DNA of 64,000 nt from Dehalococcoidia bacterium (GCA_965207995.1 CBDBNG010000001.1:4681-68680), one strand, 5' to 3'. Numbered from the stretch's first letter, positions 6,001-20,706 are shown. Translations and numbers: made by a program. Notes: generated from the sequence alone by a model not told the origin.

Positions 6001-8410
6001 CTGCCTTGGCGGTGTGGGCGTCGTCGGCGCCGTTGCCGCCGTCCTGGGTCTTCCAGGTGAAAGTGACGTCGGTGGCCGACGGATCGCTGAGGGTGGCCCG
6101 CACGTGAGCCGGCTGCCCTTCGGTGACCTTGTCTTCCAGGACCGTCAGCGACAGGCCGGGCCGGTCCACGATGGTGATGGTGGGCATGGAGACGCTGGCC
6201 GCCAGGTCTGCATACTCGTAGTTGACCCCGAACAGTTGTTTTCGGACACGTTCATTTTCTGGCGCAACGCCCAGCAAGAAAAGGCTGGCCCCGGCTTCAA
6301 TCTCCAGGGTGAAGGTTTCCAGACCCTCGCCGCTTATCCCGTCGTCATGAACTCCAATCGCCTTGCGACCAGTGGTTTGGCCTTTCGGGACATGGATCCA
6401 AAAGGCCGTGCCGCTCAGGTCTCGATAATCAACCCCTCCCGTCGCCGTAATGTCTTTGGTCTTGAAGTTGGCGGACAGATCGTAGGGCACGGGCCTGGAG
6501 AGGGTGAGACGAACCACGGCCGAGACTCCTTCCAGCACCGTGGCGTCATCCACGGCAACCGTCAGTTCCACCGGGTCGTCGTCGTTGAGGATGATGCCGC
6601 GAGAGATGAGGCCGCCGCCTCCGCAAGAAGGCACGCCGCGGAAGCAGGCGTTCACCGCGTTGGTAAAGCTAATCCACACGACTTCATCGGGTTCTTTCTC
6701 GTAATCGCCCTTGACGGTAACCTCAACCTTCTTTCGCGTTTCGCCGGGCAGGAAGGTGAGGGTGCCGGAACTCAGGGCCTCATAGTCCGTGCCCGATGTG
6801 GCCTGGTCAGGCAGTCCGGTTCCGGCCCGAGAGATTCTTGCGTAGTTCACTTTGACCGTCCGGCCGCTGGACCGGTCCAGCCGGACAACGTAGGTGAGCT
6901 TGGCGGTTTCCCCTTCGTCGGGCTCCCTCACCGTCGAACTGGTCACGGACACGATTGGCGGGTCGTCGTCATCCGTGATGGTCAGTTCCTTCAGGAAATA
7001 GCGATGTTCATTGCCGTCAGCGTCGGTCTCTACTATGGGCTGGCCGCCGTCGGCGTCGACCGCCCGCAACCCTTCGGCATTGCCATAGAGCACCAGGATG
7101 CATTCGTCGTTCTCATCCAGAACATCCCGGCGGGTATAGACCTCGAAGTGCCTGGTCTGGTCTCCTGGCCCAAAGGTGAAGCGCTGTGAATTCACTGCCC
7201 GGTAATCCACGTGCTCCACCGCTTGTTTTTCGCCGCTGGCGCAATGGCTGCCCGTTGGCTCGACGACTTCGGCGAGGATGCTGGCATGCTCGCCGGGCCG
7301 CAGCGCCCGCGCCAGGGTGACGGGCAGCCGGGCAGCCTCACCCTCCGCCACCGTGCCGCCGCGGATCGTGACGTCGACGGTGTCTTCGCTTTCGATGAAG
7401 CCGTAGGCCTTGAGGGTTGTATCCGGAGTTCCGTCGCCGTCCTGGTCGGGAAACTCCAAGTTGCCGGATGGATTGCTGAGGGTCAGGGTAAAAGCCTCCA
7501 CCCCCTCAACGAGATTGTCGTCGACCGGGGTGACAACAATCTCCTGTACCTTGGTGTCCAGGAAGGAGAGTGTTCCCGATGCGCCGCCGGCGGGCGGCGT
7601 GTAGTCGCCGGCGCTGGCGGCATTACTGAAATCGGGTGGGGCGTCGGGTGTGATGGCGTAGTTGACGGTTTGAGCGGCGCCCTGTGGCGCGGTCGGCAAC
7701 TCAACCCGAAAGACGACCTTGCCGTCCTTCTTGGCAGCTTCTGTGGCGCCGTCGTCCCAGTCCTCCTTGCCTCGGTCGTTTGCCACGTTGACGGGGAGCG
7801 GCCGGTTGGTGATAGTGACCGTTATCTTGTTGTTGGGAAAACTAACTTCCGGATCCGAAAAGTTGAAGGGTTGGAAATCAATTGCGAACCTTTCCGGCTT
7901 CTCCGCTATACCATCCCAGATTGCCTCCAAGGATATGGTTGCGGTGCGAGCCTCTTCCGAACTGCCGCTAAGCGTTATAGTCCCCTGCCGAACGACAGTG
8001 TTTCCCCCAACCTTCGCCGTGAAGTCTTGTCCATATATACCAGCGGACCCGTAAGTTTCGGTGATGTCGATCGAGGGAATAAAGGTATAGTAAAATTTGC
8101 GCTCTCGGGTTCCGGAATTTGCCGGTATCGTTAGCGTGATGTCTTGGGCCGGTCCGCCTTCTAGAATCGTGACGCTGGTCGGGGATACTGTCACTGGGAC
8201 ACGGTCTGGGCCCTGCTGGGCCGAGACGTCACTGGCGAACAGGCCGACAAGGGTGGCGCCAACGATCAGGAACAGGCCCAGCCAATGCGTGTGCCATCCA
8301 GACCGGCTTTGGCGCTCTCGCGAGGCTTCCGCCGGTGTGCTGAATTCTACGATAGATGCAATCCGTGCCCAGTCTATGGAGCGTTTCACCATATAGTTAC
8401 CCATACTCAT
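1..8410 (-). CDS. Giant secreted repeat protein (>2800 aa, partial). The C-terminus lies beyond position 1. It alternates Calx-beta-like and cadherin-like domains and has an N-terminal signal peptide.
   Basis: The reverse-strand translation from ATG 8410 is MSMGNYMVKRSIDWARIASIVEFSTPAEASRERQSRSGWHTHWLGLFLIVGATLVGLFASDVSAQQ (n/h/c signal peptide). Reading on in the same frame (plus triplets starting at positions congruent to 2 mod 3) gives Calx-beta hallmarks many times: ATGTITDDDAP, GTAEEVSDYT, TVTFAPGET, VTFAAGETEKTVSVTVNDDD. It also gives cadherin-like DxDxD...NVYQVTARATDEDG and NVYEVTLVATDESG blocks. The frame was checked at positions 272, 626, 3164, 3851-5632, 6752, 7268 and 8276 with no stop met. 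The plus-strand ORFs listed in 140-8134 are antisense artefacts. Confidence 0.8.
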   Translation of the reverse strand, partial: MSMGNYMVKRSIDWARIASIVEFSTPAEASRERQSRSGWHTHWLGLFLIVGATLVGLFASDVSAQQGPDRVPVTVSPTSVTILEGGPAQDITLTIPANSGTRERKFYYTFIPSIDITETYGSAGIYGQDFTAKVGGNTVVRQGTITLSGSSEEARTATISLEAIWDGIAEKPERFAIDFQPFNFSDPEVSFPNNKITVTITNRPLPVNVANDRGKEDWDDGATEAAKKDGKVVFRVELPTAPQGAAQTVNYAITPDAPPDFSNAASAGDYTPPAGGASGTLSFLDTKVQEIVVTPVDDNLVEGVEAFTLTLSNPSGNLEFPDQDGDGTPDTTLKAYGFIESEDTVDVTIRGGTVAEGEAARLPVTLARALRPGEHASILAEVVEPTGSHCASGEKQAVEHVDYRAVNSQRFTFGPGDQTRHFEVYTRRDVLDENDECILVLYGNAEGLRAVDADGGQPIVETDADGNEHRYFLKELTITDDDDPPIVSVTSSTVREPDEGETAKLTYVVRLDRSSGRTVKVNYARISRAGTGLPDQATSGTDYEALSSGTLTFLPGETRKKVEVTVKGDYEKEPDEVVWISFTNAVNACFRGVPSCGGGGLISRGIILNDDDPVELTVAVDDATVLEGVSAVVRLTLSRPVPYDLSANFKTKDITATGGVDYRDLSGTAFWIHVPKGQTTGRKAIGVHDDGISGEGLETFTLEIEAGASLFLLGVAPENERVRKQLFGVNYEYADLAASVSMPTITIVDRPGLSLTVLEDKVTEGQPAHVRATLSDPSATDVTFTWKTQDGGNGADDAHTAKAGKDYTARTMQSATIPAGETSIDLPAVQTLQDTIDEGDQYFTVTVVSVTSALPDDADAVVTVRDDDSRPWMSIGDAEAVEGGSLEFTISLDAASERPVSVIWVTEDDTASVLDNDYVGVTARQTVTFAPGELSKTIVVDSQPDIEPEVDEQFRIQLAHAPHAKFRDPTAVGTIKNDDTMQVAIADAAPVTEGPGATADFVISLKPAQTSAVTVRWATSDGASGPLHSARSGGNGNQGENDFTAASGSVTFAAGETEKTVSVTVNDDDFIENTEEFRVTISGDEASIDFSNVVGYAEIEDDDALTWEIVGVLPAALPEGTTADWDDDTIYQVKIRRTAHPDEVNFPWDEFGFQVCALTRPNPRNLPGGATPRGLTVGAAGSTDVSVGKIADGEFRASLVECHERTRIGELAEIHTVQFGGTLREITFGVRPRGDSLAEGNETLSLWLYPFVGRGWSLFSPDARLGLVLTTTIIDDERPQASVSGPASVDENAGRARFTVSLSKAHTQALEVFVDVRNGTAIAGEDYQPVREKITFAPGETAQTVDVVIFEDGRAEPVPETFTVFLEEASAGLNIHPVEGESTVEINDSTQTDLYIPDRVVDEGETVDILFNSSNPLTRLVTGLVYLTTAGVSNPAADDDVDYTGWERGRRITGYGSYPSRTVLILSGTQSWKLPVPTTEDSRVEADEDLGVLFYIASVNPPQPRYRGYFPVGGNQSYRMPRITIRNDDLGSVAVGGYSDAERLEGLDWESPVPTVSGAPLGHVTWTLEGDDDARFTIDADTGVISLPAQDFDDPKDQNTDNVYQVTARATDEDGNSDTQAVRVTVTSFPIASVAAPAAAVAEGDDPTKTTALNFPVSLSAARNSDATLTYTLGGTATGGTAEEVSDYTTPDPLEVTIPAGSTTANIVIPVKGDVVDEDDETVTVTLTGAVNAELSATAADLTATGTITDDDAPPTLSVADAEAPEGSKVAFEVTLSAASEQAVTFKWGTSDDATGANPATAGTDYTAVTTLQTVTIMAGSTTATLEVETAQDTMDEEDETFLVRLSSPTDATISDGEGEGTITDGFQITGDTSFEATENVAWSSPGDSFVIYGNPHDDVTWTLTGDDADLFTVVSISSSLSVQAQIDLPAQDFEDPKDKDGDNVYEVTLVATDTKGLSAATDVQVTVTNVSIGGVVFDPRTAVDEGNAVSFTVRVFSLIEDSTLEKITLEWNTAADADGDHPADAGDYTPVTVQTIGWPGSRGLEDVVETITVQTTQDALDEFDETFLIELNAIAKHPVHPHEVEFTILGNRDVVKLGPNATASVTATIVDNDAPPTLSVADAGASEGSKAAFTVTLSTVSARDVTFQWKTANDADGANPAGATDYTAVTATTATIAAGDRTATLEVQTTGDDETEQDETFLVQLSSPTNATIFDAEAVGTISDRFSLRGAVEHQVDENLAWRDEFRVEGSPTGAIAWTLGGEDADLFTVTNTSTATPDVTKAQLSLAAQDFEDPKDEDEDNVYEVTLVATDESGLASRLNVKVTVTDVIRASIVLNPVKPVDEGDAIKFLVQIQQIKALDDTVTLEWNTATDPDGDHPADANDFTAVTNGTVTWPGNYTGFDEINKTIMVQTTEDRVDEHNETFLIELRASVRGSVHSQDHPNEVAFVLISGNDDGIARGPNAAATATATIKDDDAATAVVSVGAPGAAVIEGDDPTKTTEMSFPVSLSAASGKVVTVTYTLTGTARAPGDYTEPDPLSVSVPAGSTTANIVIPIRGDVLYEDDETVIVTLTGATNAALDEDASDLTATGTITDDDETIELSIADLTVAEGKTMVFTVSISRIAPTDVFVGWRTSPDSTGDHPAEQQKDFVYDTGIVRIKAGNTSGRLAVRTVGDTLDEHDETFLIKLSQPRNATIVDGQATGTITDDDDAPTLSVNDVSVAEGGLAEFTATLSAASGKAVFFKWKTAADADGTHAAGASDYTAVAETDATIAAGFKTVKLKVQTVQDTLGEEDETFLVQL

Positions 8411-8420
8411 TTTACTATGC

Positions 8421-8446
8421 GGGGGGGGGGCAGGGCAGGGGGGGGG
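8421..8446. repeat. Homopolymeric tracts G10-CAGGGCA-G9 (C10/C9 on the coding strand) 11-36 nt upstream of the giant gene start codon
   Basis: Seen directly: gggggggggg at 8421-8430 and ggggggggg at 8438-8446. Confidence 0.9.
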
Positions 8447-8637
8447 CTACCCTAAATGCAACGAGAATGAGTCCAAGATCCACTACCCAGCGGCAAGAAT
8501 GCGATTTCGGGCCACTTGGTTGGGCCGGTGTCGGCGACGCCATCTTCACGGTGACGGCCAGCACGAACGGGTCTTCCCCGGCTCGCGGCGCTGCCGGCAG
8601 TTTCCCCCAGAGATTCATCCACGGATTCGCCCCGTTG

Positions 8638-9678
8638 TCATCGCTCCTCCCCCATGTCTTGCGCCTCCAGCAGCAAGCGAAGGGTCTGGGCCGACGTCCT
8701 CTCCTCCACCTCCGCCATGAAGACATCTGCCGATGGAAGGAAATAGTCTTCTGCGGGCCACAGGTCTCCCACAGGTGGAGGGTCGGCAAAGGTGGCAACC
8801 TTCTCCGGGTAGTGCACATAGGCTTCACGGACGCTCCGGCGCAGGGCTTGCACCAGGCTCAGCGCCTCGCTGATGCTGATTTCGTCCTCCGGGTATGACC
8901 AGGTGGTCGCACCCATGACGTCACCCACCTGCCAGTCGGTCTTGGGCGAGTTCGGGTCGCTGTTGTGGCAGACCACGCACGCCTCCGCCGAGGCGATGTC
9001 CGAGAACATGGCGGTCTGAAAGCCGATATCCGGGTCCAGGAAGAACTGCGGCTCGCCGGTGCGCCTGATGACTTGAAAGTGCTCTGTCTGCAAGCCGGTG
9101 AACTTGTTGGCGTCATTGATCGGGAAGTCCGAGCCGAGGAAGAGATACAGGGGAACCGGACTACGACAGAGACCCTTGGCAGTCTCCCGCAGGAAGAGCG
9201 CCGGAAGCGGCCCGGCGTGCGTGGGGGTGATAGGGTCGTCCTCCAACGAGGTGTCCTGGTGGCAGTGGGTGCAGAAACCGATGGTGGGCTGAGTCACCCG
9301 CACCCCTTGGTGCTCGGTGTGGCAGGCGACGCACATGTGGGCCTCGATGTGCTCCCGTGCATCGGCGAAGCGCGGCTCGAGGAAGCGGGAGATCGGGTGC
9401 CGGTCGTCAGGCCTCTCGTGGCAGTCCAGACAGGCTGCGTTACCGACATCCTCGGAGCCAAAACCGATGGTGGACTCCCGCAGGCCCAGCCAGTCGTAGA
9501 CGTTGGAGTTCAGTTGCTGCGCGGCGGTGCCCGCTACGGCTGAGTGGCATTCCTGGCAGCCCAATCCCTCGTGGCCAGTGTTCATGGGCCCCTTGGCAAC
9601 CAGCGCGTTGCGGTCCGGGAATGTGAGAAACGCCACCAAGAGCAGGCCCAGCGCGACGACCGACTGCAACGCCGACAT
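8638..9678 (-). CDS. Pentahaem c-type cytochrome with signal peptide
   Basis: The ORF translation has five CxxCH motifs (CQECH, CLDCH, CVACH, CTHCH, CVVCH). The N-terminus is hydrophobic (MSALQSVVALGLLLVAFLTF). Confidence 0.8.
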   Translation of the reverse strand: MSALQSVVALGLLLVAFLTFPDRNALVAKGPMNTGHEGLGCQECHSAVAGTAAQQLNSNVYDWLGLRESTIGFGSEDVGNAACLDCHERPDDRHPISRFLEPRFADAREHIEAHMCVACHTEHQGVRVTQPTIGFCTHCHQDTSLEDDPITPTHAGPLPALFLRETAKGLCRSPVPLYLFLGSDFPINDANKFTGLQTEHFQVIRRTGEPQFFLDPDIGFQTAMFSDIASAEACVVCHNSDPNSPKTDWQVGDVMGATTWSYPEDEISISEALSLVQALRRSVREAYVHYPEKVATFADPPPVGDLWPAEDYFLPSADVFMAEVEERTSAQTLRLLLEAQDMGEER

Positions 9679-10837
9679 ACCTCCAGTGCTTCAATAACGT
9701 CCTGATAGCAGCCCCGTTCCCGAGCGGGTCCTTAAGTGCCTCAAGTAGGATATGGGGCAGACTAGGGCCGGGAATGCACGGGTGTGTCAGCGCTGACCTG
9801 ATGAGGACGGGGCGGAAGCGGGATTAGGATGCGGTCAGCCCGACGCAAGTTGCTACAAGCCTCGCGTCGGCTATTGACAGGCTATCGCATGGCGGATGGG
9901 GAGACGCGAGGAGAGTAGACCTCCAGTGACCAGCGCTCACGCTTCCCCGTCACTAGGCGTCACACTACAGGTATCGCAAGTCCTTGGTGCGCCGACAGGC
10001 TGCCAAGCGACATCTCGAAGATGGCGGTATCTACCGTAAGCGGTGGTGGGCCAAGGCGTACCGATTTGCGAACTTTTCGCTGGGAAGTCCTGATCTAAGC
10101 AAGGCCCCGTCAAATCCGGATAGCTCTAACGAGCCTCCGCCCATCCGGTTGGAGGCTCCCTCATTTCTCCAGATGGTCCTATCTCACCGCCAGCCCATGG
10201 GACAACCCTCTCCCATTATCGGCGCTGTGTCAACGTGTGCACAAGACTTGCAATGGCAGATTCACTGTCAGTCAGAGCCGCCATCCAGTGGTGGCTAGGA
10301 TACGAGGGATTAGGAAGGCGACTACGAGCCAGATGACCTCCGAGTGGACGCGGACGGATTCGCCCTCCTTTCGGACAAGCAGGTGGACCCAGTTGCGGAT
10401 GAACCAGATAGCCAGGGCGGGGCGGCATAGAAGAGGGCGTAGCCGAGGCACCGAGGTCAGCCCAGACCTAGTCCCGCGCCCGGGATCCAGGCGAAATCGA
10501 CTGCTTTGGCGATGACTTGACCACTTCAGAGACGATGTTGAAGGCGGTCTAGATGAGCTGGGCGTCGTAGAGGGTGGCGAAGATGACCGGGCGACGTACA
10601 GCACCCAGCACGCCAGCCTCGGTCCGCTGGTTATCCGCACCACAGAAATGCCCAGCCGCCTCCAGATTCCAGTACAGGCCTGCAGCCGTTCGTGACGGCA
10701 CCCCCACTCTTGGCCCGCATCGTTTGTTTTCGGAACAAGCGCCGGCAACGCGGGACGACCTCGTGGCAACTGTCTTCCTGAGCGCAGTTACTGAATCCCA
10801 ATGGCGCGAGGTTGGAACTGATAGAGACGTCCAATGA

Positions 10838-10859
10838 CTGCTGTAGTATACTACAGCAG
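10838..10859. promoter_or_regulatory. Perfect 22-bp palindrome CTGCTGTAGTA|TACTACAGCAG, a candidate operator 27 bp upstream of the HTH gene
   Basis: Seen directly. The reverse complement of ctgctgtagta is tactacagcag. Confidence 0.6.
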
Positions 10860-10886
10860 GGTCTTTAGTCTACGAGGAATCGAGCC

Positions 10887-11114
10887 ATGTATATGCCCGA
10901 GGAACTTACCGTACCCCAAGCAGCGTCCTACCTCAACGTAAGTGAGGAGACGGTTAGACGAAACATAAGGTCGAGACGCCTGAAAGCGTTACGCAGGGGA
11001 ACCCAGTGGTTCATTCCTCGCGATATTCTCGTCGTCTTTGCAAACAGCTACGATCCTAAGACTGGCAAGTTACGATGCCATGAGAGACCGAGTCAAGGAA
11101 ATGGAAGGCTCTAG
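10887..11114 (+). CDS. Excisionase-family (HTH_17) DNA-binding protein. It is either a controller for the downstream MTase operon or an Xis.
   Basis: LTVPQAASYLNVSEETVRRNIRSRRLKALRRGTQWFIPRDIL is a typical HTH_17 / AlpA-Xis helix-turn-helix. It is the first gene of the plus-strand operon. Confidence 0.7.
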   Translation: MYMPEELTVPQAASYLNVSEETVRRNIRSRRLKALRRGTQWFIPRDILVVFANSYDPKTGKLRCHERPSQGNGRL

Positions 11115-11121
11115 GACAACC

Positions 11122-12336
11122 ATGAACGCAGGCACCAAGATTCCCGACTTCTTGGCTGTGGACTTCTATTGTGGAGCCGGGGGTACTACCCGTGGGCTTC
11201 TGGATGCAGGTGGGTATGTGATTTGCGGCATCGACAAGGACGAGACGAACCGTACCTCCTACGAGGACAACAATCGCAACACCACTCTTGACCGACGTAA
11301 GCCGAAGTATCTGGCGCTCGACATGTTTCCTCGCAGCCCGGACCATCCTACAGGGCAACAGCGGGAAATCTGGATTGAGCTAAAGTCTCTTATTCCGCGC
11401 TTTCGCGCCGAGGCCCCGAGCTCACCGTTGCTGTTCGTCATTTGTGCGCCATGTCAATCATTCACCCGATTCATACAGCGTCGAATGACGGTCGACCGAA
11501 CCGAGAGCCGCGAACGCGACCTGAATCTATTGTACCAGACGATAGGGTTCATCAGAGAGTTCCGACCCGAAATGATCATTTCGGAGAATGTGGCGAGCAT
11601 CAGGACTGGTAAGTTCAGCCACATTTGGAGCAATTTTGAGAAAGAGTTGCGAAACCTCGGCTATGCCGTAGGTGAGGATCGAGTCTGCGCGTCGCGCTTC
11701 GGAGTGCCCCAATATCGGCGACGATCGGTCCTGCTGGCGATGCGCGTCGAGAGCCCAGCCGACCTGGTACAGGATTTGCCGGTGCCTACTGCTGATCCCG
11801 ACGCTCCGACTCTTTCCGCGAGGGGAGCTCTCGACCATCTTCCCGACTTGGAGGCAGGGGAGGAATCCGACGACGTTGCAAATCACATTTGTCGAAATAT
11901 CACCGAAGTCAATCGCCGTCGTCTCATGTCTGTCAAACCCGGAGAGGCCAACTGGGGGCTCGCAAAGACCCAGTTCGGTGACCTGTCGCTACCTTGCCAT
12001 CGCAGACTTGCCGCCAAAGGTAAGAAGGGCTTCGGGGACGTGTACACCCGAATGCATCCAGACCGTCCCTCACCAACCTTGACAACGAGGTTCCACAGCA
12101 TTTCGAACGGAAGATTCGGGCACTATGACGAAGAGCAAGTTCGTGGCCTGTCGTTGCGCGAAGGCGCCATTCTTCAATCGTTCGGTGACGAGTATGTATT
12201 TCATGGTGAGAGTATGGACACCATTGCCAGGATGATAGGCAATGCAGTCCCCCCCAAGCTGTCGGCCTACATGGCGAAGTGGCTTCTGAACCTTTGGCAA
12301 GGCCGTTTTCGGAAGCATGTCAACCCAGCAAGTTGA
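11122..12336 (+). CDS. DNA (cytosine-5)-methyltransferase (Dcm-type)
   Basis: C5-MTase motifs are present: I FLAVDFYCGAGG, IV ICAPCQSFT, VI ISENVASI, VIII VPQYRRRSVLL, and C-terminal RMHPDRPSPTLTT and GNAVPP. The start is set at MNAGTK (11122) to avoid overlap with the upstream gene. Confidence 0.9.
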   Translation: MNAGTKIPDFLAVDFYCGAGGTTRGLLDAGGYVICGIDKDETNRTSYEDNNRNTTLDRRKPKYLALDMFPRSPDHPTGQQREIWIELKSLIPRFRAEAPSSPLLFVICAPCQSFTRFIQRRMTVDRTESRERDLNLLYQTIGFIREFRPEMIISENVASIRTGKFSHIWSNFEKELRNLGYAVGEDRVCASRFGVPQYRRRSVLLAMRVESPADLVQDLPVPTADPDAPTLSARGALDHLPDLEAGEESDDVANHICRNITEVNRRRLMSVKPGEANWGLAKTQFGDLSLPCHRRLAAKGKKGFGDVYTRMHPDRPSPTLTTRFHSISNGRFGHYDEEQVRGLSLREGAILQSFGDEYVFHGESMDTIARMIGNAVPPKLSAYMAKWLLNLWQGRFRKHVNPAS

Positions 12337-12343
12337 GGCGGTC

Positions 12344-12760
12344 ATGAGCGATATTCTGACAAAGGAAAGGCGTTCAGAGCTAATGTCCCGTGTCAAGAGC
12401 AGGGACACGTCACCAGAAGTGTTCGTCCGCAGGGCGGCTTGGGACGCTGGGTTTCGCTATCGGCTGAATGTTCGGGAATTGCCAGGGACACCAGACTTAG
12501 TGTTCCGTCGCTACGACACTGTAGCGCTAGTGCAGGGGTGCTTCTGGCACTGCCACAATTGCCGCAAAGGACGGCGCCGCCCGACTTCCAACCAAGCTTT
12601 CTGGAATCGCAAACTAGATGGTAACGAAGCGAGGGACGCCGCGAATCAAGCGAGGCTCCGGGAGATGGGCTGGACAGTGCTCTTGATTTGGGAATGCCAG
12701 CTTTATGAAGGGACAGAAGCCCTATTGGCACACCTTGGAGAGCTTCGGTCCGCTAGATGA
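12344..12760 (+). CDS. vsr: Very-short-patch repair endonuclease (Vsr)
   Basis: DTSPEVFVRRAAWDAGFRYRLNVRELPGTPDLVFRRYDTVALVQGCFWHCHNC...NQAFWNRKLDGNEARD...GWTVLLIWECQL matches the Vsr signature. RBS GAGG lies upstream of ATG 12344. Confidence 0.85.
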   Translation: MSDILTKERRSELMSRVKSRDTSPEVFVRRAAWDAGFRYRLNVRELPGTPDLVFRRYDTVALVQGCFWHCHNCRKGRRRPTSNQAFWNRKLDGNEARDAANQARLREMGWTVLLIWECQLYEGTEALLAHLGELRSAR

Positions 12761-15700
12761 GCAATTCTATGAATCAGGTCACGGCACAATTCACGGCTAG
12801 CGCTCGTACCGTTGATATGCTGGGACGCCAGCAGATTGCGGGCATTCCGAATGCCATCAGCGAATTATTTAAGAACGCGTACGATGCGTACGCAGATCGT
12901 GTAGTCGTCGAATACTACCAGCCTGAACACCTATTGGTTCTCTGGGACAATGGGCTAGGTATGACCAGGGAGGACATAGAGCAGAAGTGGTTGGTACTGG
13001 GCACCGACAGTAAGGTCGGAGACAGGAAAGGGGACTTGTCCGCCATAGCGAAGGAACTAGGCTTGGAGCACCGGAACACGGTTGGAGAGAAGGGCATCGG
13101 TCGCCTCGCAATAGGGGTAATCGGGCCACAGGTCTTGCTGCTTAGTCGGGCAAAGCGAGTTAGAGAATCACCGAAGATGGTTGCTGTTTTCGTTAACTGG
13201 TCTTTGTTTGAACTCCCGGGCGTGTCTCTGAATGAAATAGTAGTTCCGTTAAGGGAGTTTGACCACGGGATATTGCCAAACAAGGCCACTGTAGCCAGCA
13301 TGGTGGACGAAGTCAGGCAGAATCTCAAGCGGCTGCGGCGTACCGGGGACGAGGCAAGAATCAAGGAAATCGAGCAACAATTGGATGGATTCGATTTCGA
13401 TCCCGCTGCCATGCAAGCAAGATTCGGTGATTCGACCTTGAGTAATGCTGGCTTTGGCACTCAGTTCTACATTCACCCCGTTGACAGTGTCCTCAATGAG
13501 GCCCTGGAGGAGAGACAGCGTGCTAGAACGGTAGGGACCCGAGCAGCAAGGCTGAAACTGCGCAATATGCTGGTTGGCTTCACGAACACGATGGTTCACG
13601 AAGATGTCCAGCCACCCATAAGTACCGAGTTCTATTACTATCCCAAAATGGACGTACGCGTGCCGATAATAGGCAGCGAAGAGTTCTTCACCCCCGAAGA
13701 ATTCGCTTCTGCGGATCATCACATTAGTGGCAGGTTTGATGAACGGGGACAATTCACAGGCACTGTCTCTGTGTACGGCAACGCAGTAAACAATCATGTC
13801 ATTTCGTGGCCGGAAGGTAGAGGCGAAACGGCCGACTGCGGGCCATTTCATTTGAATCTAGCCTATGTCCAGGGTCAAGAGTTCGAGACGCGCATGTATG
13901 TAGAGGATTGGCGTAACCTCAACCGCAAGCTGGATGAGATGGGCGGGCTATACATCTACCGAAATGGGATCCGGATCCTTCCCTACGGCGATCCGGACGT
14001 CGATTTCTTGAGGTTCGAGGAACGACGTTCTAGAAGGGCAGCCACCTATTTTTTCTCCTATCGGCGGATGTTTGGGACGATAGAACTTTCAAACGACCGA
14101 AGATATAGGCTGCAGGAGAAAGCGGGACGCGAAGGTTTCATGGAGAACCGTGCGTTTCGGCAGTTTAGAGATATCCTAGAGCACTTTTTTACACAACTGG
14201 CTGCCGATTTCTTCCGCGAAGATTCTCCTAGCGGCACTTTCCAGGTGGAGCGAGAGGAACTTAGCCGTCAAGCCAAGGCAGCTCGACTAAGGGACAAGGA
14301 AGTTGCTCCTGTCCGATCAAGATTTGTCCGTGAATTGCGCCGCATTAAGTCTGACGTTGAGTCTGGAACGTTCGAGGACCGTGTCGAAGAAGTCATAGAA
14401 AGACTGGGATCGGACTTAAACAATAGTGCTGCTCTTCTAGACCCCAGGGAAAGGCAAGGGGCTATCGTGGCGGCGAGCCTAACGGCTGTAAATGAGATCG
14501 AGAACTTACGAGCAAGGTACAGGCCCCCCGAGCCTGAGGGATTCGGAGCCAACCAGTCGTTGCGACGGGAATTGAACGAGTACGGTCTGTTGTTTGCCAG
14601 TAAGGAGGACCGGGTACTAAGGCCTGCTTCGATCCGGGTCGAAGAGATGCTGTGGGAGTCAAGCGAGATATCTGGCCTCGCCTCTGACCGTCAGAGACTT
14701 CTGAAGGATCGTCTCGACCGCTTGATCGAGTCAGAGGTAACCGCTTTAGATTCCGATACCCAAAAGGCCTCTGAAGAGGTCGACCGAGTCTCTCAAATGG
14801 CAAAGGAGGCGTTATCCACGCAAGCCATAGAACTTAGGAACACCCTTGACATGATTGTTTCCAGGGTGGAAGAGAGCTCCCTTGACTTGTTGTCTGACAG
14901 CGAGCTGGCGAGCTTGGCGGTTTCGATGACGTCCGAGATATCAATCTTGAGTGAGGCCAAGCACCGCATAATAGACGACATAAGGAAGCAGTTCGCCATT
15001 GTGAATGTCCACCCGGACGAATCAGGAACACTGATCACCCAAGGTGATGTCGTCGGCGCTATGGAGGAGGACATAGATTCCTTAAGGCACGACTCCTTCA
15101 GAGACTTGGAGTATGTGCAACTAGGAATGACCATCGGCATCATTGATCATGAGCTCCAAGCCGTCATCCGGTCGCTACGCCTTAACCTGGGGAGACTCCG
15201 GTCTTGGGCGGTAAGGAACGAAGACCTGGCTGAAGTCTATCAAGGCATCCGAGTCAATTTTGACCATTTGGATAGCTATTTGCGATTGCTCACGCCACTG
15301 CAACGTCGCTCACGGAGAACCCTTTCTGAAATCAAGGGTTCGGCCATCTACAACTTCATCGAAGAATTGTTTGCTACGCGGTTTGCCGAACACGATATAA
15401 GACTAGAGCAGGCAACGGCTTTTGAGAACTATTCTCTGGTCAGCTACCCCTCTACGTTTTATCCTGTCTTCATTAATTTAGTTGACAACGCGATGTACTG
15501 GCTACAACGTCGGCAATCTGGACGTGTTATAAGCTTCGATGTCGAGGGAGATGCTCTGCTAGTCCGTGATAACGGGCCCGGAATCTCTGCCTTGGATCGT
15601 GAAGCAGTGTTTGAAGCTGGTTTCACTCGCAAACCTGGAGGAATGGGGCTTGGATTGTATATCGCAAGGAGTCAGTTGAGGCAAGTTAACTATGACATTG

Positions 15701-15780
15701 AGATTCTCGACCCTCCGAATGGTGAAGGAGTGACATTCAGGATAGCTCCTCTGGAGGCAGTTAATGACCGGAGTCAATAG
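12757..15780 (+). CDS. 1007-aa protein with two GHKL ATPase domains. The N-terminal domain is MutL/MORC/Hsp90-like and the C-terminal domain is a histidine-kinase-type HATPase_c, with a long coiled-coil middle. Function unknown.
   Basis: N-terminal Bergerat motifs are ISELFKNAYDAYA, LWDNGLGMTREDI and GEKGIGRLAIGV. C-terminal HK motifs are FINLVDNAMYWL (N box), VRDNGPGIS (G1) and GGMGLGLYIARSQL (G2), with a possible H-box IIDHELQAVIRSL. The start ATG overlaps the vsr stop (ATGA). Confidence 0.7.
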   Translation: MSNSMNQVTAQFTASARTVDMLGRQQIAGIPNAISELFKNAYDAYADRVVVEYYQPEHLLVLWDNGLGMTREDIEQKWLVLGTDSKVGDRKGDLSAIAKELGLEHRNTVGEKGIGRLAIGVIGPQVLLLSRAKRVRESPKMVAVFVNWSLFELPGVSLNEIVVPLREFDHGILPNKATVASMVDEVRQNLKRLRRTGDEARIKEIEQQLDGFDFDPAAMQARFGDSTLSNAGFGTQFYIHPVDSVLNEALEERQRARTVGTRAARLKLRNMLVGFTNTMVHEDVQPPISTEFYYYPKMDVRVPIIGSEEFFTPEEFASADHHISGRFDERGQFTGTVSVYGNAVNNHVISWPEGRGETADCGPFHLNLAYVQGQEFETRMYVEDWRNLNRKLDEMGGLYIYRNGIRILPYGDPDVDFLRFEERRSRRAATYFFSYRRMFGTIELSNDRRYRLQEKAGREGFMENRAFRQFRDILEHFFTQLAADFFREDSPSGTFQVEREELSRQAKAARLRDKEVAPVRSRFVRELRRIKSDVESGTFEDRVEEVIERLGSDLNNSAALLDPRERQGAIVAASLTAVNEIENLRARYRPPEPEGFGANQSLRRELNEYGLLFASKEDRVLRPASIRVEEMLWESSEISGLASDRQRLLKDRLDRLIESEVTALDSDTQKASEEVDRVSQMAKEALSTQAIELRNTLDMIVSRVEESSLDLLSDSELASLAVSMTSEISILSEAKHRIIDDIRKQFAIVNVHPDESGTLITQGDVVGAMEEDIDSLRHDSFRDLEYVQLGMTIGIIDHELQAVIRSLRLNLGRLRSWAVRNEDLAEVYQGIRVNFDHLDSYLRLLTPLQRRSRRTLSEIKGSAIYNFIEELFATRFAEHDIRLEQATAFENYSLVSYPSTFYPVFINLVDNAMYWLQRRQSGRVISFDVEGDALLVRDNGPGISALDREAVFEAGFTRKPGGMGLGLYIARSQLRQVNYDIEILDPPNGEGVTFRIAPLEAVNDRSQ

Positions 15781-17467
15781 CTCGCTCGATTACGCCAGCC
15801 AATCGAGAGGAATCGCACAGCGATTTCTTCGTAATGTCCTTTTGCTGGACGACCGAGCCTCCATGGGGCCTTCGCGTATTTTGAGTAGACGGCAATCTGC
15901 TTTGGAGACCCCTGGTCCTGAATCCGTCGACGTTGAATTGCCTGCCGCTGGCCAGGTATTGGCTGGCGCGGAGTCTTTAGACGCTAAAGAGGTTGTTAGA
16001 GGGTTTGCCAAACTGGGCCTAATGTGTGCCCCGTTAGTCCCTGATATCGATGGTGCAGGAGAAGAAGATACTTTCGTGAACGATTTTTGCGAGGCTGCAG
16101 AAAGGGCAGACATCCTGGTTCTCGATTGGTGGATGAGCGGCAATCGGAATTGGAGCAAGCCTCAGTTGGCGCAAAGAGTGATTCGGAGAATTATTGAACG
16201 AGACCAAACTGCCGGGGGTAGGTTACGCTTAGTTGCAATCTATACTGGAGAACCAAATACAACTCGAATTCTGGAGAAGCTGAAGACTTTGGTGCGGCAA
16301 CGATATCAAGGATTCAACCTGTTGCCTGCAGAGGTGGCTGGTCAACCGAACGTTGATTGGCTGTCCAAAGGTCCATTCCGCTTGGTGGTCATTCCGAAGA
16401 ACCCTGGAGCAACTGTAGGTGATCCAATAGCGGGACGTGATTTGGCAGATCGGCTGGTACAGGAGTACTCACAGTTAACGCGTGGGTTACTGCGAAACGT
16501 AGCATTCTGTGGATTAGCGGCTTTGAGAGAGCGTGCCCATCAGTTGCTTGCTACCTTTGAGAATGACATTGACCCTGCATTCCTTATCCATCGAGCATTG
16601 CTAGATGATACTAATGACGCCGAATCCCATGTCATTGAGATACTGGGTTCGGAGTTGTTGGCAATTCTCGAAGACCAAGAAGTAGGTGCGGAAGTTGGAG
16701 ACAATGCCATAGATAGGTGGCTGAGTCACTATGGACAAGATGCATTCGTCAACGTGAGCGGCTTATTGAAGTGGGGACAGAGCACGATCGATGCATGGAG
16801 TCGAGTCTTGACTCGCGGCGCGGGCTACAACGGTCGTCCGGAAGGGGTGTCGAGGAAGGATGTGGACGAATTGGTTGAAGTGCTGAGAAGCGACGGAACG
16901 CAAGCTCTACTACCTAGAGAAGGGAACCTTAATGATGATAGCTATCAGGAGATGGCTCGGCAAGCAAACTTCAAACTCGCTTCTTTGATGAATACAAGAA
17001 ATGTGTACACAGACAAACATCCATATTTGACGTTAGGGACAGTTCTGTTTCGTAAACGCGACGGGAAGTACTTTGTTTGCCTCCAGCCGAAGTGCGATTC
17101 CGTTCATTTGAGGGGAAGCAGACCCTTTCCTTTACTTTCGCTGTCCATTGCGGAAGAGCATAGCAAATACAATTTAGTCCTCAGAGATGAAGGATTGGAG
17201 AACGAATGGGTCTGGCTCGTTGTCCGAGCGGGATCTAGGAGTCTCGAATTGCCTACATTCACGCCTGAAGAAACGTCTGGGAAGGTTATCGCGACAAAGA
17301 GAGCCGGGGGTCTTTCTTTCAAGGATGACAAGAATGCGGTATATCGTTGGGTGGCTGCGATGAAGGATGAACATGCCCTGAGGATTGTAAACGAACTTGC
17401 CTCTAATCTGGCTAGGCCGGGCCCAAACGACTCAGAATGGCTACGACGCAACTTCCCGCAGACATAG
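15764..17467 (+). CDS. 567-aa protein with N-terminal receiver (REC)-like domain and uncharacterised C-terminal region
   Basis: REC-like landmarks are NVLLLDD (beta1 acidic pair), ADILVLDWWM (phospho-acceptor Asp position) and LRLVAIYTGEP (Thr position). No recognisable effector motif was seen in the C-terminal 400 aa. It overlaps the upstream gene by 17 nt. Confidence 0.55.
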   Translation: MTGVNSSLDYASQSRGIAQRFLRNVLLLDDRASMGPSRILSRRQSALETPGPESVDVELPAAGQVLAGAESLDAKEVVRGFAKLGLMCAPLVPDIDGAGEEDTFVNDFCEAAERADILVLDWWMSGNRNWSKPQLAQRVIRRIIERDQTAGGRLRLVAIYTGEPNTTRILEKLKTLVRQRYQGFNLLPAEVAGQPNVDWLSKGPFRLVVIPKNPGATVGDPIAGRDLADRLVQEYSQLTRGLLRNVAFCGLAALRERAHQLLATFENDIDPAFLIHRALLDDTNDAESHVIEILGSELLAILEDQEVGAEVGDNAIDRWLSHYGQDAFVNVSGLLKWGQSTIDAWSRVLTRGAGYNGRPEGVSRKDVDELVEVLRSDGTQALLPREGNLNDDSYQEMARQANFKLASLMNTRNVYTDKHPYLTLGTVLFRKRDGKYFVCLQPKCDSVHLRGSRPFPLLSLSIAEEHSKYNLVLRDEGLENEWVWLVVRAGSRSLELPTFTPEETSGKVIATKRAGGLSFKDDKNAVYRWVAAMKDEHALRIVNELASNLARPGPNDSEWLRRNFPQT

Positions 17468-18377: not shown

Positions 18378-19223
18378 TTAGTTCCCTATGCAGAACAGGG
18401 CGTTGAACGCTGTCCTGGTCTTGCAGCGCTTGACCTCGGCGCGCATCTGTCCAAAGTACGTTGAGGCCCGCTGGCGAGTTCCAGAATCTGCCGGGCCAAG
18501 ATATTCGTCCACGTATCTCGACTGCCCCGTGGAATCTTTGATCGGACTCTTTACCGCATCCATCGAGTGCCCCAATAGGTGAATCAGCATGTTCTTCGGG
18601 TCGAGGGGTCCTTGATAGCCCTTGAACGCGTCGATTGCTAGAGACTCCATGTGGTAGCCACTGATCTTCCTGCTGGGACGGCTGATGAAACAGTCCGCCA
18701 TCGCCTTGGCAAGTTTGATTACCGGAACTACTCTGCCGTCCCTCGCCGTATTGACTTTGGCGAGGTTCCGGGCAAAGTCATCAGGCCGCGCCACGTTGCT
18801 CCACTGGTTGCTCCCCGGGTTGGCAATCCGAACGCCGCCAGTATTGGTCCGTAAGGCGGGCAGTATCTGAATCTCCGTCCCGTCGGAGTAGCTGACCGTC
18901 ACCGCTAGATTGCCCGCGCTTACGGTATTCTGCCGAAGCCGATCCTGGATGGTCTCCCGCACGTACTCTATGGCTCTTGCAGGAGGCTGATTTACAAGCG
19001 AAGACTGGTTCACTATGAGTAGAGCGTCGACATCGCTGAGGCCGGTCACGTAAGTGCCCTTCCGCACCGAACCGCCGAACATGGTTTGCACGACATCGCC
19101 CTTCTGCCTGAGGAACCCACACAAGTTTTCCAGACGCTGAGTGACAGTCTGCGTGTTCCTGCGGGCGTACTGTGCGAGCAATGCCTCGCAGTATTCATTG
19201 AACCTATCGTCTGGCACGGTCAT
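18378..19223 (-). CDS. SMODS / CD-NTase-like nucleotidyltransferase (Pol-beta superfamily)
   Basis: The FGGSVRKGTYVTGLSDVDALLIV motif is GS-x9-11-SDxD, with a later acidic residue in SYSDGTE. The start is set at MTVPDD (ATG 19223), which overlaps the vapC stop as ATGA. Confidence 0.6.
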   Translation of the reverse strand: MTVPDDRFNEYCEALLAQYARRNTQTVTQRLENLCGFLRQKGDVVQTMFGGSVRKGTYVTGLSDVDALLIVNQSSLVNQPPARAIEYVRETIQDRLRQNTVSAGNLAVTVSYSDGTEIQILPALRTNTGGVRIANPGSNQWSNVARPDDFARNLAKVNTARDGRVVPVIKLAKAMADCFISRPSRKISGYHMESLAIDAFKGYQGPLDPKNMLIHLLGHSMDAVKSPIKDSTGQSRYVDEYLGPADSGTRQRASTYFGQMRAEVKRCKTRTAFNALFCIGN

Positions 19224-19675
19224 GCGTCCGCTTCCGTCTCGACCAGATCGTCCAAGATGACGAAGGGCAAGCCCTCGACGCGGCGAAAGTCGGTGTCGTT
19301 TGTAATGAAGGCAGCGCAGCCAGCACTCAGAGCCGTCGCGGCGTGAAGTGCGTCGGGTGTCGCTAAGCCCGTCTCGGCGCGGATGCGAGCGGCATCTTCC
19401 CAAGTTGCCAGGGTAGCGGGGATGAGGTCCATCTCCGCAGCGGCAAGGATGGACCGAAAAAGCGCCTCAAGACGGGAGTTGCCGTCTCGCAGGGGTCTGA
19501 CCAAGGTTTCCAATGCAACCAACTCGCTGCTTACCAGAATGAACCGGCCTGCCTTGGCCTCTTCCCACATCGGAGCCAACAGACCGTGGTAAGGCTCAAT
19601 CCGTTCTACGCTGTAGATGATCGCATTGGCGTCGACGTAGACCAGCCCGCCGGCGGGCAGCCTCAACGGCCCCAT
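19220..19675 (-). CDS. vapC: PIN-domain toxin (VapC)
   Basis: LVYVDANAIIY...ITNDTDF has the PIN acidic residues. The gene is 151 aa and directly follows the antitoxin gene. Confidence 0.85.
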   Translation of the reverse strand: MGPLRLPAGGLVYVDANAIIYSVERIEPYHGLLAPMWEEAKAGRFILVSSELVALETLVRPLRDGNSRLEALFRSILAAAEMDLIPATLATWEDAARIRAETGLATPDALHAATALSAGCAAFITNDTDFRRVEGLPFVILDDLVETEADA

Positions 19676-19914
19676 GATTCCTTCTCTTCCTTCAAGTAGG
19701 CCGCCACTTCCGCCGCCGTCTTGAAAGCCAATCCCCCCGGCGCTTCGGCCAGAATGTCAACCGCAGACCGCCGTTCTGACACCGATGACTGGCTGACGAC
19801 CACATCGACGGACTCCCCCACAGGAAGCCCCTGGTCTACGATCTCTATCTTTCCCCCAGGCTGTACAGTCGTCCGTACATGCAGCGCTTTTTGCATCTGC
19901 TTGCCCTCCTTCAT
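19663..19914 (-). CDS. Antitoxin (VapB-like, probably AbrB/MazE-type swapped-hairpin)
   Basis: It is an 83-aa ORF immediately upstream of vapC with a 13-nt overlap. Confidence 0.6.
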   Translation of the reverse strand: MKEGKQMQKALHVRTTVQPGGKIEIVDQGLPVGESVDVVVSQSSVSERRSAVDILAEAPGGLAFKTAAEVAAYLKEEKESWGR

Positions 19915-19959: not shown

Positions 19960-20706
19960 CTACATATGGGCCGTAACGTCGGCCGCCATCTTGAAAGTCA
20001 GGCCTCCCGGCACTTCTTTCAGGATGTCAACCACGGACCGCCGTTCTGACACCAGCGATTGGCTGACGACCACATCGACGGACTCCTCCACGGGAAACTC
20101 ATGAGCCAATGCAAGAGTCAGTTGTCGGATGTCGGCCTGGGCGGACGGCTTGTTCCGTTGGAGACGCGGCTTACTGAGCGGCTTCAAGTTATCCTTCATC
20201 TCAACGAGCGTTTCTGCGAAGGTCAACAAGCCTCCAACGTCTTCCGCATAGACGACTAGCGCACCTTCGGCCCCATTGACCAACCCGCAGTTTGCAAGTT
20301 CAGCCGCCTTCAGTAGATTGCGCACACGGCCTTTGCGGCAATAGAAGGCAACCAGTGGATAAGGTTCATGGTGTCCGGGACCACCGGAGCAGCTCGATAT
20401 GGGAGCACAATTCGCCGCTGAAAGGGCGAACACCGCTGCGCCGACGCCAAGGTCGAGATAGGTCTCTTCACCGTTGAGATTCACTACTTCAATGCCAGGA
20501 TTCACTCCGGCTCCTGGCTGTGCAAGACCCTTATGCTCTTCCTCAAGCATCGTGCGGACGTCTTCCCACGTCGCCCCGCGTACGTCTATGTAGCCTCGTG
20601 AGAATATATCTTCGTCGGCGAGGTCACTCTCGGATGGCCATACCATCAGGGACGCATCGATTGTCCGCTGAATCACAGCCCGTTCTCTTGCGGCGGCCCT
20701 ATTCAT
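19960..20706 (-). CDS. Hypothetical 248-aa protein whose C-terminal ~45 aa duplicate the downstream antitoxin C-terminus
   Basis: Its C-terminus EESVDVVVSQSLVSERRSVVDILKEVPGGLTFK matches the antitoxin GESVDVVVSQSSVSERRSAVDILAEAPGGLAFK. The nucleotide repeat is 19935-20095 versus 19665-19825. Confidence 0.4.
   Translation of the reverse strand: MNRAAARERAVIQRTIDASLMVWPSESDLADEDIFSRGYIDVRGATWEDVRTMLEEEHKGLAQPGAGVNPGIEVVNLNGEETYLDLGVGAAVFALSAANCAPISSCSGGPGHHEPYPLVAFYCRKGRVRNLLKAAELANCGLVNGAEGALVVYAEDVGGLLTFAETLVEMKDNLKPLSKPRLQRNKPSAQADIRQLTLALAHEFPVEESVDVVVSQSLVSERRSVVDILKEVPGGLTFKMAADVTAHM

Follow-up and report, generated by a model that had tools for sequence, protein, structure and literature searches.

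A methyltransferase-linked HEF_HK/Response_reg_2 cassette in a defence island of a Dehalococcoidia bacterium, and its possible role as a restriction-modification-type module

We describe a cassette of five genes and one palindrome, located at positions 10,838 to 17,467 of a 64,000-nucleotide stretch of DNA from a Dehalococcoidia bacterium (GCA_965207995.1, CBDBNG010000001.1:4681-68680; this whole stretch is referred to as “the window”). The cassette is horizontally acquired, sits in a defence island and belongs to the HEF_HK/Response_reg_2 family, which is widespread and was first described computationally in 2008 and 2021: a C5-cytosine DNA methyltransferase (MTase) is followed by a histidine-kinase-like protein with an additional N-terminal ATPase (“HK”) and by a response-regulator-like protein (“RR”). 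We propose that the cassette serves in defence or addiction as a restriction-modification-type (R-M-type) module whose conventional endonuclease is replaced by a phosphorelay and whose outcome, whether restriction or an abortive response, is gated by methylation; we estimate the probability of this reading at about one half.

Several findings support this proposal: the family membership of HK and RR and their solubility; the linkage of the MTase, HK and RR genes, the conserved target-recognition region of the MTase, their co-inheritance, the pattern of their loss, the island context and the different flanks of the cassette in its close relatives; the catalytic residues of the kinase and of the receiver, all of which are invariant or nearly so; and the fact that the architecture of the kinase had already been listed from REBASE as that of a putative Type II restriction endonuclease (REase) (PMC2441816).

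Results

Organisation of the cassette

The five genes are located on the plus strand in the order HTH, MTase, Vsr, HK (1007 aa) and RR (567 aa), where HTH stands for a small helix-turn-helix protein (Table 1). The genes are closely packed: the HTH-MTase gap and the MTase-Vsr gap are 7 nt each, the start of the HK open reading frame (ORF) overlaps the stop of vsr through the sequence ATGA, and the RR ORF overlaps the HK ORF by 17 nt. The five-gene operon, the palindrome and these spacings had been outlined in a preliminary description, made from the sequence of the window alone, and all of them have been recovered in our analysis, as has the lack of a classical restriction endonuclease in the operon. 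Promoter-like or terminator-like sites inside the cassette do not occur beyond chance, with the caveat that the palindrome, whose stem precedes a T-rich tail, is also the sole terminator-like match near the beginning of the cassette. The G+C content is 50-55% in the cassette region and 60-70% in the flanks, a difference that points to a horizontal acquisition of the five-gene cassette.

The palindrome, CTGCTGTAGTATACTACAGCAG, is perfect over its 22 bp and ends 27 nt upstream of the ATG of the HTH gene; its halves, CTGCTGTAGTA and TACTACAGCAG, are 11 nt each, are 100% complementary and are joined without a spacer. By chance, about 0.015 perfect palindromes of 22 bp are expected in 64 kb (64000 x 4^-11), and the core of the palindrome, GTAGT-N2-ACTAC, has a single occurrence within the window. 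The identical five-gene set has been found in two metagenomic loci, L081 and L082, where it is located between different flanks, with transposases adjoining; the core of the palindrome is located there at an equal distance 5' of the HTH gene, while the bases that flank the core differ. The HTH gene is kept in these close relatives, but not across the wider family, and its product also resembles the PADLOC model mad1 (1.4e-6). The 75-aa HTH_17 protein is the probable controller of the cassette, and it would exert this role by binding to the palindrome.

Table 1. Features of the cassette and of its neighbourhood (positions are those of the window; values after family names are E-values, unless given in bits).
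Feature	Position	Strand	Basis
Palindrome, candidate operator for the HTH protein	10838-10859	.	11+11 nt, 100% complementary; core kept in L081 and L082
HTH_17/excisionase-type DNA-binding protein, 75 aa	10887-11114	+	Pfam HTH_17 1e-11; TIGR01764 5.9e-11
C5-cytosine DNA methyltransferase (MTase), 404 aa	11122-12336	+	Pfam DNA_methylase 1.7e-35; PADLOC MTase_II 1.7e-60
Vsr very-short-patch repair endonuclease, 138 aa	12344-12760	+	Pfam Vsr 7e-28; TIGR00632 130.5 bits (cutoff 97.85)
HK-like ORF, 1007 aa	12757-15780	+	ORF call; Pfam domains
HK residues 1-462: GHKL (Bergerat) ATPase and S5-type transducer, paraMORC/MORC/MutL-like	12757-14142	+	
HK residues 465-750: long helical coiled-coil linker	14149-15006	+	AlphaFold2 secondary structure
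HK residues 765-998: kinase core, DHp (HEF_HK, H798-E799) and CA (HATPase_c)	15049-15750	+	
RR-like ORF, 567 aa	15764-17467	+	ORF call; Pfam domain
RR residues 1-214: receiver (REC) domain, in which residues 31-73 form a long disordered insert	15764-16405	+	
RR residues 216-411: all-alpha domain, no family assignment	16409-16996	+	Model pLDDT ~90
RR residues 412-567: beta-rich domain and two C-terminal helices, candidate effector	16997-17467	+	Conservation
SLOG/DprA-like protein, 204 aa	17747-18361	-	PADLOC PsyrA 1.9e-13; Pfam DNA_processg_A below cutoff
CBASS-type oligonucleotide cyclase	18378-19223	-	Pfam SMODS 7.6e-11; PADLOC Cyclase PDLC00790 2.3e-93
PIN (VapC-like) toxin	19220-19675	-	83-aa upstream partner at 19663-19914
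248-aa ORF, no family match	19960-20706	-	
Three-gene row: 251-aa ORF (weak HNH_5), 1112-aa Type IIG restriction-methylase, 1131-aa PLD(HKD) and SNF2 helicase	20699-28187	-	
464-aa protein with four HTH_3 (Xre-type) repeats	28691-30085	-	Pfam 1e-27, four stretches
346-aa multihaem c-type cytochrome (Cytochrome_C7/c3 and Tll0287-like), just upstream of the island	8638-9678	-	

Conservation of the cassette across genomes

A scan of species-representative genomes has returned 80 loci, 79 of which hold the HK-RR pair; the loci originate from Chloroflexota, Actinomycetota, Acidobacteriota, Gemmatimonadota, Bacteroidota, Pseudomonadota, Desulfobacterota, Verrucomicrobiota and others, as well as from Methanosarcina, and the nearest genome relatives are Dehalococcoidia metagenome-assembled genomes (MAGs). 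The HK gene is located directly 5' of the RR gene in all 79 loci. A homologous C5-MTase is present in 74 of them, being located directly upstream of HK and on the same strand in 67, and two of the five loci that lack it are cut by contig ends. Vsr, by comparison, occurs in 53 of the 79 loci and takes five different positions or orientations: 5' of the MTase, between the MTase and HK, or 3' of RR, on either strand. The clustering of all flanking ORFs from these loci has revealed no other conserved family, the remaining clusters being spurious alternate-frame ORFs inside the core genes; given this, and the linkage of MTase, HK and RR, the core of the system is a three-gene unit, and no separate nuclease gene is conserved beside the core in this branch of the family.

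The pairwise identities of the core proteins are correlated (Spearman correlation of ~0.6 for MTase against HK and of 0.75 for HK against RR), by which measure the three core genes are inherited together. Their loss also follows a pattern: in the three evaluable loci without MTase, HK is frameshifted in one (L002), lacks its N-terminal half in another (L035) and is intact, together with RR, in the third (L001), while in six loci (L042, L045, L046, L050, L070 and L082) the MTase is intact and HK or RR is split or interrupted. The toxic half of R-M systems typically decays in a similar way, although the numbers are small here.

Two of the loci without MTase, L001 and L002 (~6500-11700, in Dehalococcoidia MAGs), belong to the closest genome relatives, with RR at 68-69% identity, and in both of them a degraded Vsr is located 5' of the HK-RR pair; either the pair can persist without a neighbouring MTase, or these copies are decaying.

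The family extends well beyond the scanned loci: a word-indexed search with HK has returned more than 5400 proteins (representatives of 90%-identity clusters, E<=1e-10), some of which share similarity through HATPase_c alone. Plasmid collections have yielded two weak matches, one of them a remnant that is disrupted by IS5, and no match for RR has been found in the phage genome collection.

The kinase-like protein

The HK protein, whose database copy starts four codons later (1003 aa), contains two GHKL-type domains at its two ends, as had been noted in the preliminary description, and a long helical linker separates them; the motifs that were quoted there have been confirmed, and they are kept throughout the family. 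In the Pfam search, HATPase_c_3 covers residues 32-135 (3.6e-12), HEF_HK (PF19191) covers residues 788-854 over its full profile, positions 1-67 (1.1e-25, 90.3 bits against a cutoff of 24.1), and HATPase_c covers residues 901-996 (2.1e-16). The AlphaFold2 model, with a predicted local distance difference test (pLDDT) of 71, agrees with this division: the GHKL domain is followed by a second alpha/beta domain, by approximately 290 residues of long helices, and by the four-helix element of DHp and the CA domain. The second alpha/beta domain is the S5-fold transducer that follows the GHKL domain in ATPases of the paraMORC/MORC type.

The motifs of both catalytic modules are conserved across the family: E36/N40/D43, D64xGxG and G110-E-K-G-x-G at the N-terminal module, and H798-E799, N911, D938xG and G962xGxG at the kinase core. 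At the N-terminal module, the Bergerat motifs I-III are intact, with E36, N40, D43, D64, G66, G68 and G110-G115 being invariant; at the C-terminus, H798-E799 is likewise invariant and the H, N, G1 and G2 boxes are all present, i.e. the protein has the kinase core of canonical two-component systems, with a DHp domain that lacks the phosphatase residue. The linker is the least conserved part of HK, with a mean column identity of 0.55, compared with 0.71-0.81 elsewhere, and a mean pairwise identity of 0.31. The resemblance of the N-terminal module to SMCHD1 and MORC is no weaker than that to MutL. Both HK and RR are soluble proteins, with maximum 19-aa Kyte-Doolittle values of 1.29 and 1.23, respectively, which are below the transmembrane level.

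The coiled-coil and kinase half of HK (residues 399-997) is also matched by phrog_8137, a PHROG of unknown function (7.7e-91), so truncated or full relatives occur in phage or prophage genomes.

The receiver protein and its output region

In RR, Response_reg_2 (PF19192) covers residues 21-179 (6.7e-28, 98.5 bits against a cutoff of 27), and no Pfam match follows residue 180. The structural model (pLDDT of 81; predicted TM-score of 0.77) separates the protein into the receiver, an all-alpha domain (modelled at residues 224-410) and a C-terminal beta-rich domain with two terminal helices as a cap (residues 420-563), and the conserved residues have been located by comparison with 107 diverse homologues (median identity of 29% to the RR of the window). 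The residues D29, D30, D121, T161 and K212 of the receiver are conserved; the all-alpha domain has conserved residues R255, D270, H276, R277 and E297, while the beta domain and the terminal helices have G425, C439, Q441, P442, C444, D445, R448, R551, G553, E558, W559 and R561. The C-terminal domain is the only net-basic domain, with a mean charge of +3.4. At one of these near-invariant positions of the putative effector domain, the RR of the window differs: residue 448 is histidine (CDSVHL, codon 17105-17107), while it is arginine (CDSVRL) in 97% of the 107 homologues and in all close relatives.

The preliminary description had found no recognisable motif in the output region, and profile and structure searches have led to the same result: residues 216-567 of RR match no family in Pfam, NCBIfam, PADLOC or PHROGs, and a Foldseek search of the output region against the PDB has given no match at E<=1e-3. 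A profile of the beta domain has found nothing meaningful among the PDB sequences (best E of 0.46) and, in Pfam, it has retrieved 12 unrelated families with one member each. A recognised output domain, whether DNA-binding or enzymatic, as is found in canonical two-component systems, is thus lacking; in particular, no HTH or other DNA-binding family has been detected in RR by the Pfam and profile searches, and no PD-(D/E)xK, HNH, GIY-YIG or PLD domain has been found in HK or RR by Pfam, PADLOC, NCBIfam, PDB profile and Foldseek searches. Readings of the conserved RR motifs as GIY-YIG, HNH, PD-(D/E)xK, deaminase (PCxxC), papain-like Cys-His or HEPN signatures have been rejected for their spacing or for missing residues: the beta domain has no invariant histidine, K443 is not conserved and the cysteines are spaced as C-x4-C.

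A profile of the last 156 residues of RR has retrieved at least 1520 clusters at 50% identity; among the best 150 of these 1520 clusters, the domain is C-terminal in every near-full-length protein (~500-620 aa), the others being shorter fragments. The conserved polar residues and the basic charge are compatible with a catalytic or a nucleic-acid-binding site. We tentatively consider, at somewhat less than even odds, that the C-terminal alpha and beta module has a fold not seen before and acts as an enzyme that modifies nucleic acid, as a nuclease or otherwise, once it is switched on by His-Asp phosphotransfer.

The methyltransferase and Vsr

The MTase scores 123.5 bits against PF00145 and its translation shows FYCGAGG, PCQ, ENV, QYRRR and GNAVP; all of the diagnostic C5-MTase motifs are present and the enzyme therefore looks active. 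Its nearest solved structures are HaeIII and DNMT1, with the match being limited to the conserved motifs. The target-recognition region, located between motifs VIII and X, is more conserved across the family (mean pairwise identity of 0.55) than the catalytic core (0.43), which suggests that a single target motif is common to the family.

Vsr scores above its family cutoff and adjoins the C5-MTase, as in the Dcm-Vsr pair of E. coli, where Vsr is stimulated by MutL, and the gene of a MutL-like ATPase adjoins vsr in the window. The suggestion that this ATPase is a dedicated partner of Vsr has proved weak: unlike a dedicated partner, Vsr is dispensable in the family, being missing from 26 of the 79 loci, and the ATPase, which carries a kinase core, resembles MORC/SMCHD1 no less than MutL. 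From its variable presence and position, it follows that the ATGA coupling of vsr and HK is a local arrangement and not a family feature. Vsr is a facultative accessory of the MTase, and its part would be the repair of T:G mismatches that arise from the deamination of 5-methylcytosine.

Comparison with described systems

The preliminary description had presented the cassette as a candidate new module, which does not hold: the pair was defined in 2021 by Bellieny-Rabelo, Pretorius and Moleleki as PF19191 and PF19192, a two-component-like pair that is tied to restriction-modification (PMC8011034). In that account, the two genes are linked in 91.6% of 644 regions, type II R-M components are over-represented, C5-MTases are often located upstream with Vsr genes nearby, and descent from the paraMORC ATPases is proposed. 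The cassette of the window differs from this family in nothing essential: both Pfam models match with an ample margin over their cutoffs, HK and RR are neighbouring genes, the proteins are soluble, HK has the “group 1” architecture (HATPase_c_3, HEF_HK and HATPase_c), the C5-MTase is located upstream and Vsr is near. What is new beyond the 2021 account is the strictness of the three-gene core, the lack of a separate nuclease gene in this branch, the conserved target-recognition region of the MTase, the two-domain anatomy of the RR output with its conserved residues, the members from Methanosarcina, and the HTH and palindrome controller of the sub-clade.

The kinase had appeared earlier, in 2008, when Orlowski and Bujnicki (PMC2441816) listed R.EcoUTORF4938P, a putative Type II REase of REBASE, with an N-terminal GHKL domain, a C-terminal histidine kinase and an unassigned middle part. 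We have found its locus in E. coli UTI89, as a triad of C5-MTase, HK and RR (UTI89_RS23925/23920/23915): the HK, annotated as “ATP-binding protein” (986 aa), is 37% identical to the HK of the window over its full length (E=0), and the RR, annotated as “response regulator receiver domain” (555 aa), is 24% identical to that of the window (E of 2e-41) and has the same C-terminal motifs. Among 5426 complete E. coli genomes, 197 (3.6%) carry the triad, and E. coli NU14 is a further carrier. In contrast to the window, no Vsr gene is located between or directly beside the three genes of UTI89, and no HTH gene adjoins the MTase. The REase label of R.EcoUTORF4938P is a positional guess, and its receiver partner was not noted in 2008.

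With the paraMORC and MORC systems of Iyer, Abhiman and Aravind (2008, PMC2292703), where a kinase-linked or receiver-linked family is not mentioned, the present family shares the N-terminal Bergerat ATPase and S5 transducer with intact motifs, the C5-MTase and Vsr neighbourhoods, and the patchy, laterally mobile distribution; unlike them, it has no helicase partner. VcSduA/paraMORC3 (PMC12137116), one of the GHKL-nuclease defence proteins, contains a fused PD-(D/E)xK nuclease, while the HK of the window contains a coiled coil and a full kinase core, with the receiver being a separate protein; the V. cholerae WASA paper is concerned with a paraMORC3/Shedu fusion and not with the present family. 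The BbrUII/HgiDII restriction enzymes (NF050001) also pair with a C5-MTase, and the N-terminal ~120 residues of HK are homologous to them (1.9e-15), but HK scores 56.5 bits against the full-length cutoff of 550, with profile positions 4-117 of 659 being aligned, and the C-terminal domain of R.HgiDII is absent from HK.

Detocs is a defensive phosphorelay with a non-nuclease effector. The resemblance to it that had been suggested for the cassette stands with respect to the logic, i.e. a soluble kinase-type sensor signals to a receiver protein, and from there to an effector output rather than to a transcription factor; it does not extend to the proteins themselves, since no DtcA, DtcB or DtcC match has been found and the PADLOC search has given just two weak REase_II matches, which cover the N-terminal ATPase of HK, and none for RR at E<=0.1. 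Further differences are that the present family has no buffer receiver, that its sensor is the MORC-like ATPase, that its effector is another one and that a methyltransferase is obligatory. Membership in MADS has been rejected as well: the HTH protein alone resembles mad1 (NCBIfam, 13.3 bits against a cutoff of 80), and no mad model matches the MTase, HK or RR. Finally, HATPase and REC are named in a figure legend of the DefensePredictor paper, as one of several predicted systems that await validation; this may or may not be the present family.

Genomic context

The cassette sits in a defence island: immediately 3' of it, on the minus strand, are located the genes of a CBASS-type cyclase and a PIN toxin, as well as those of a Type IIG enzyme and a PLD-SNF2 helicase (Table 1). 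Together, the cyclase and the SLOG/DprA-like gene look like a defence pair that works through nucleotide signalling and lacks a classical CBASS effector. A segment of the 83-aa partner of the PIN toxin, “ESVDVVVSQSxVSERRSxVDIL...PGGLxFK”, is repeated near the C-terminus of the 248-aa ORF, and the two proteins may represent a duplicated or fused antitoxin module. The row of three genes that follows is a second, unrelated restriction-type system within the island: its Type IIG restriction-methylase matches PADLOC PDLC03628 (1216 bits) and Pfam Eco57I, and its helicase matches PADLOC C3a139 (2e-49) and has DrmD-like similarity. The 464-aa protein with multiple HTH repeats is an unusual regulator at the edge of the island, while the multihaem cytochrome on the other side marks the host backbone.

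Discussion

The proposed R-M-type module would operate as follows. The MTase would mark one fixed target motif on the host DNA. The GHKL and S5 ATPase of HK would act as a DNA-engaging, ATP-driven dimerising clamp that reports the status of the DNA, most simply whether target sites are unmethylated on DNA that has just entered the cell or has just been replicated. The conformational change of the clamp would be transmitted through the coiled coil to the DHp/CA core, leading to autophosphorylation on H798, and the phosphoryl group would be transferred to D121 of the receiver protein; with no phosphatase residue in DHp, this signal may not be easily reversed. Phosphorylation would then release or assemble the C-terminal alpha and beta module of RR, the putative effector, which would most likely act on nucleic acid. 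The HTH_17 protein and the palindrome would form a local controller unit, similar to the C proteins of R-M systems and confined to this sub-clade. The preliminary description had already suggested that the kinase-receiver pair supplies the restriction or abortive function, and this agrees with the linkage of the pair to the C5-MTase (74 of the 79 loci), with the lack of any other conserved gene and with the defence island.

Other findings weigh against this proposal. A search of the literature for experiments on any member of the family has found none. Where split genes contribute to the pattern of loss, those from MAGs may be assembly errors. In locus L001, HK and RR are both intact although no MTase adjoins them, so toxicity in the absence of methylation is not established. 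Lastly, because of H448, the copy of the window may be impaired.

This last point leads to an alternative that concerns the window alone, namely that the family may be functional, but the cassette described here is an inactive, decaying relic. The substitution at a position that is otherwise almost always arginine and the frequency of gene disruption among the relatives agree with this, but all five ORFs are full length and tightly spaced, every other catalytic or invariant residue is intact, the change from arginine to histidine is conservative and the operator palindrome is perfect; we regard decay as very unlikely. We give as little credit to a role in repair, where the MutL-like ATPase would be a dedicated partner that stimulates or directs the nicking by Vsr at T:G mismatches, with the kinase and receiver tuning the repair. 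The gene order of the window invites this reading, but the invariant neighbour of the pair is the MTase and not Vsr, whose absence from a third of the loci, variable position and strand elsewhere, and lack from the UTI89 triad have been described above; moreover, Vsr is commonly found beside C5-MTases irrespective of this family, and the affinity of the N-terminal module to SMCHD1/MORC is at least as close as to MutL.

A purely regulatory two-component system is improbable, but somewhat less so: an intracellular cue, e.g. nucleotide levels or the state of the DNA, would be sensed, and the RR output would be a novel DNA-binding module that targets the MTase operon or other genes, an epigenetic switch without restriction. 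The authors of the 2021 account favoured a signalling cascade that controls R-M systems, and reported that the transcripts of the Pectobacterium homologues were induced in planta (PMC8011034); the HK-RR pair looks in every respect like a functional phosphorelay, and the net-basic charge is found in the C-terminal domain of RR alone. Against this, no DNA-binding family is detectable in RR, the MTase is mostly located upstream in the same operon, so it would be co-transcribed with its supposed regulators, regulators are rarely confined to mobile defence islands and rarely decay to leave orphan MTases, and a MORC/MutL-type clamp with a coiled coil of 290 residues would be an unusual input for a simple regulator. 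Nor do the profile searches show the pair to be a housekeeping kinase with a standard DNA-binding receiver output, and its association with dcm and vsr genes is not restricted to the window. An abortive-infection or addiction system with a non-nuclease toxin, which would kill or arrest the host upon loss of the methylation or DNA-status signal, or upon its perturbation by a phage, is, in our estimate, equally unlikely. It is in keeping with an effector module that has no nuclease signature, with the missing phosphatase residue, which suggests an irreversible commitment switch, with the abortive-type neighbours (CBASS cyclase and PIN toxin) and with the precedent of Detocs; on the other hand, the strict coupling to the MTase and the conserved target-recognition domain would most simply indicate the marking of self and non-self DNA, as in restriction, and nucleic-acid chemistry is compatible both with the Arg, Asp, Glu, His and Cys residues that are conserved and with the basic C-terminal domain of RR.

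Conclusions

The cassette of the window is one more instance of a described family, located in a defence island. The family itself is large, extends over many bacterial phyla and reaches the archaea, is present in the uropathogen E. coli UTI89, and combines DNA methylation with a MORC/MutL-type ATPase clamp and with His-Asp phosphotransfer, three well-studied machineries that do not usually occur in one system. The mechanism of the family could reveal a new gating of restriction or abortive defence, and possibly a new enzyme fold, and it could provide a prokaryotic model for the reading of DNA methylation by MORC-type ATPases. If the effector is indeed a nuclease or a similar enzyme of a new fold that phosphotransfer switches on, the family would be the first R-M-type system in which a MORC-like clamp reads the 5-methylcytosine status and licenses an effector through a phosphorelay, and it would answer the question, raised since 2008, of where the GHKL-type “restriction enzymes” cleave from.

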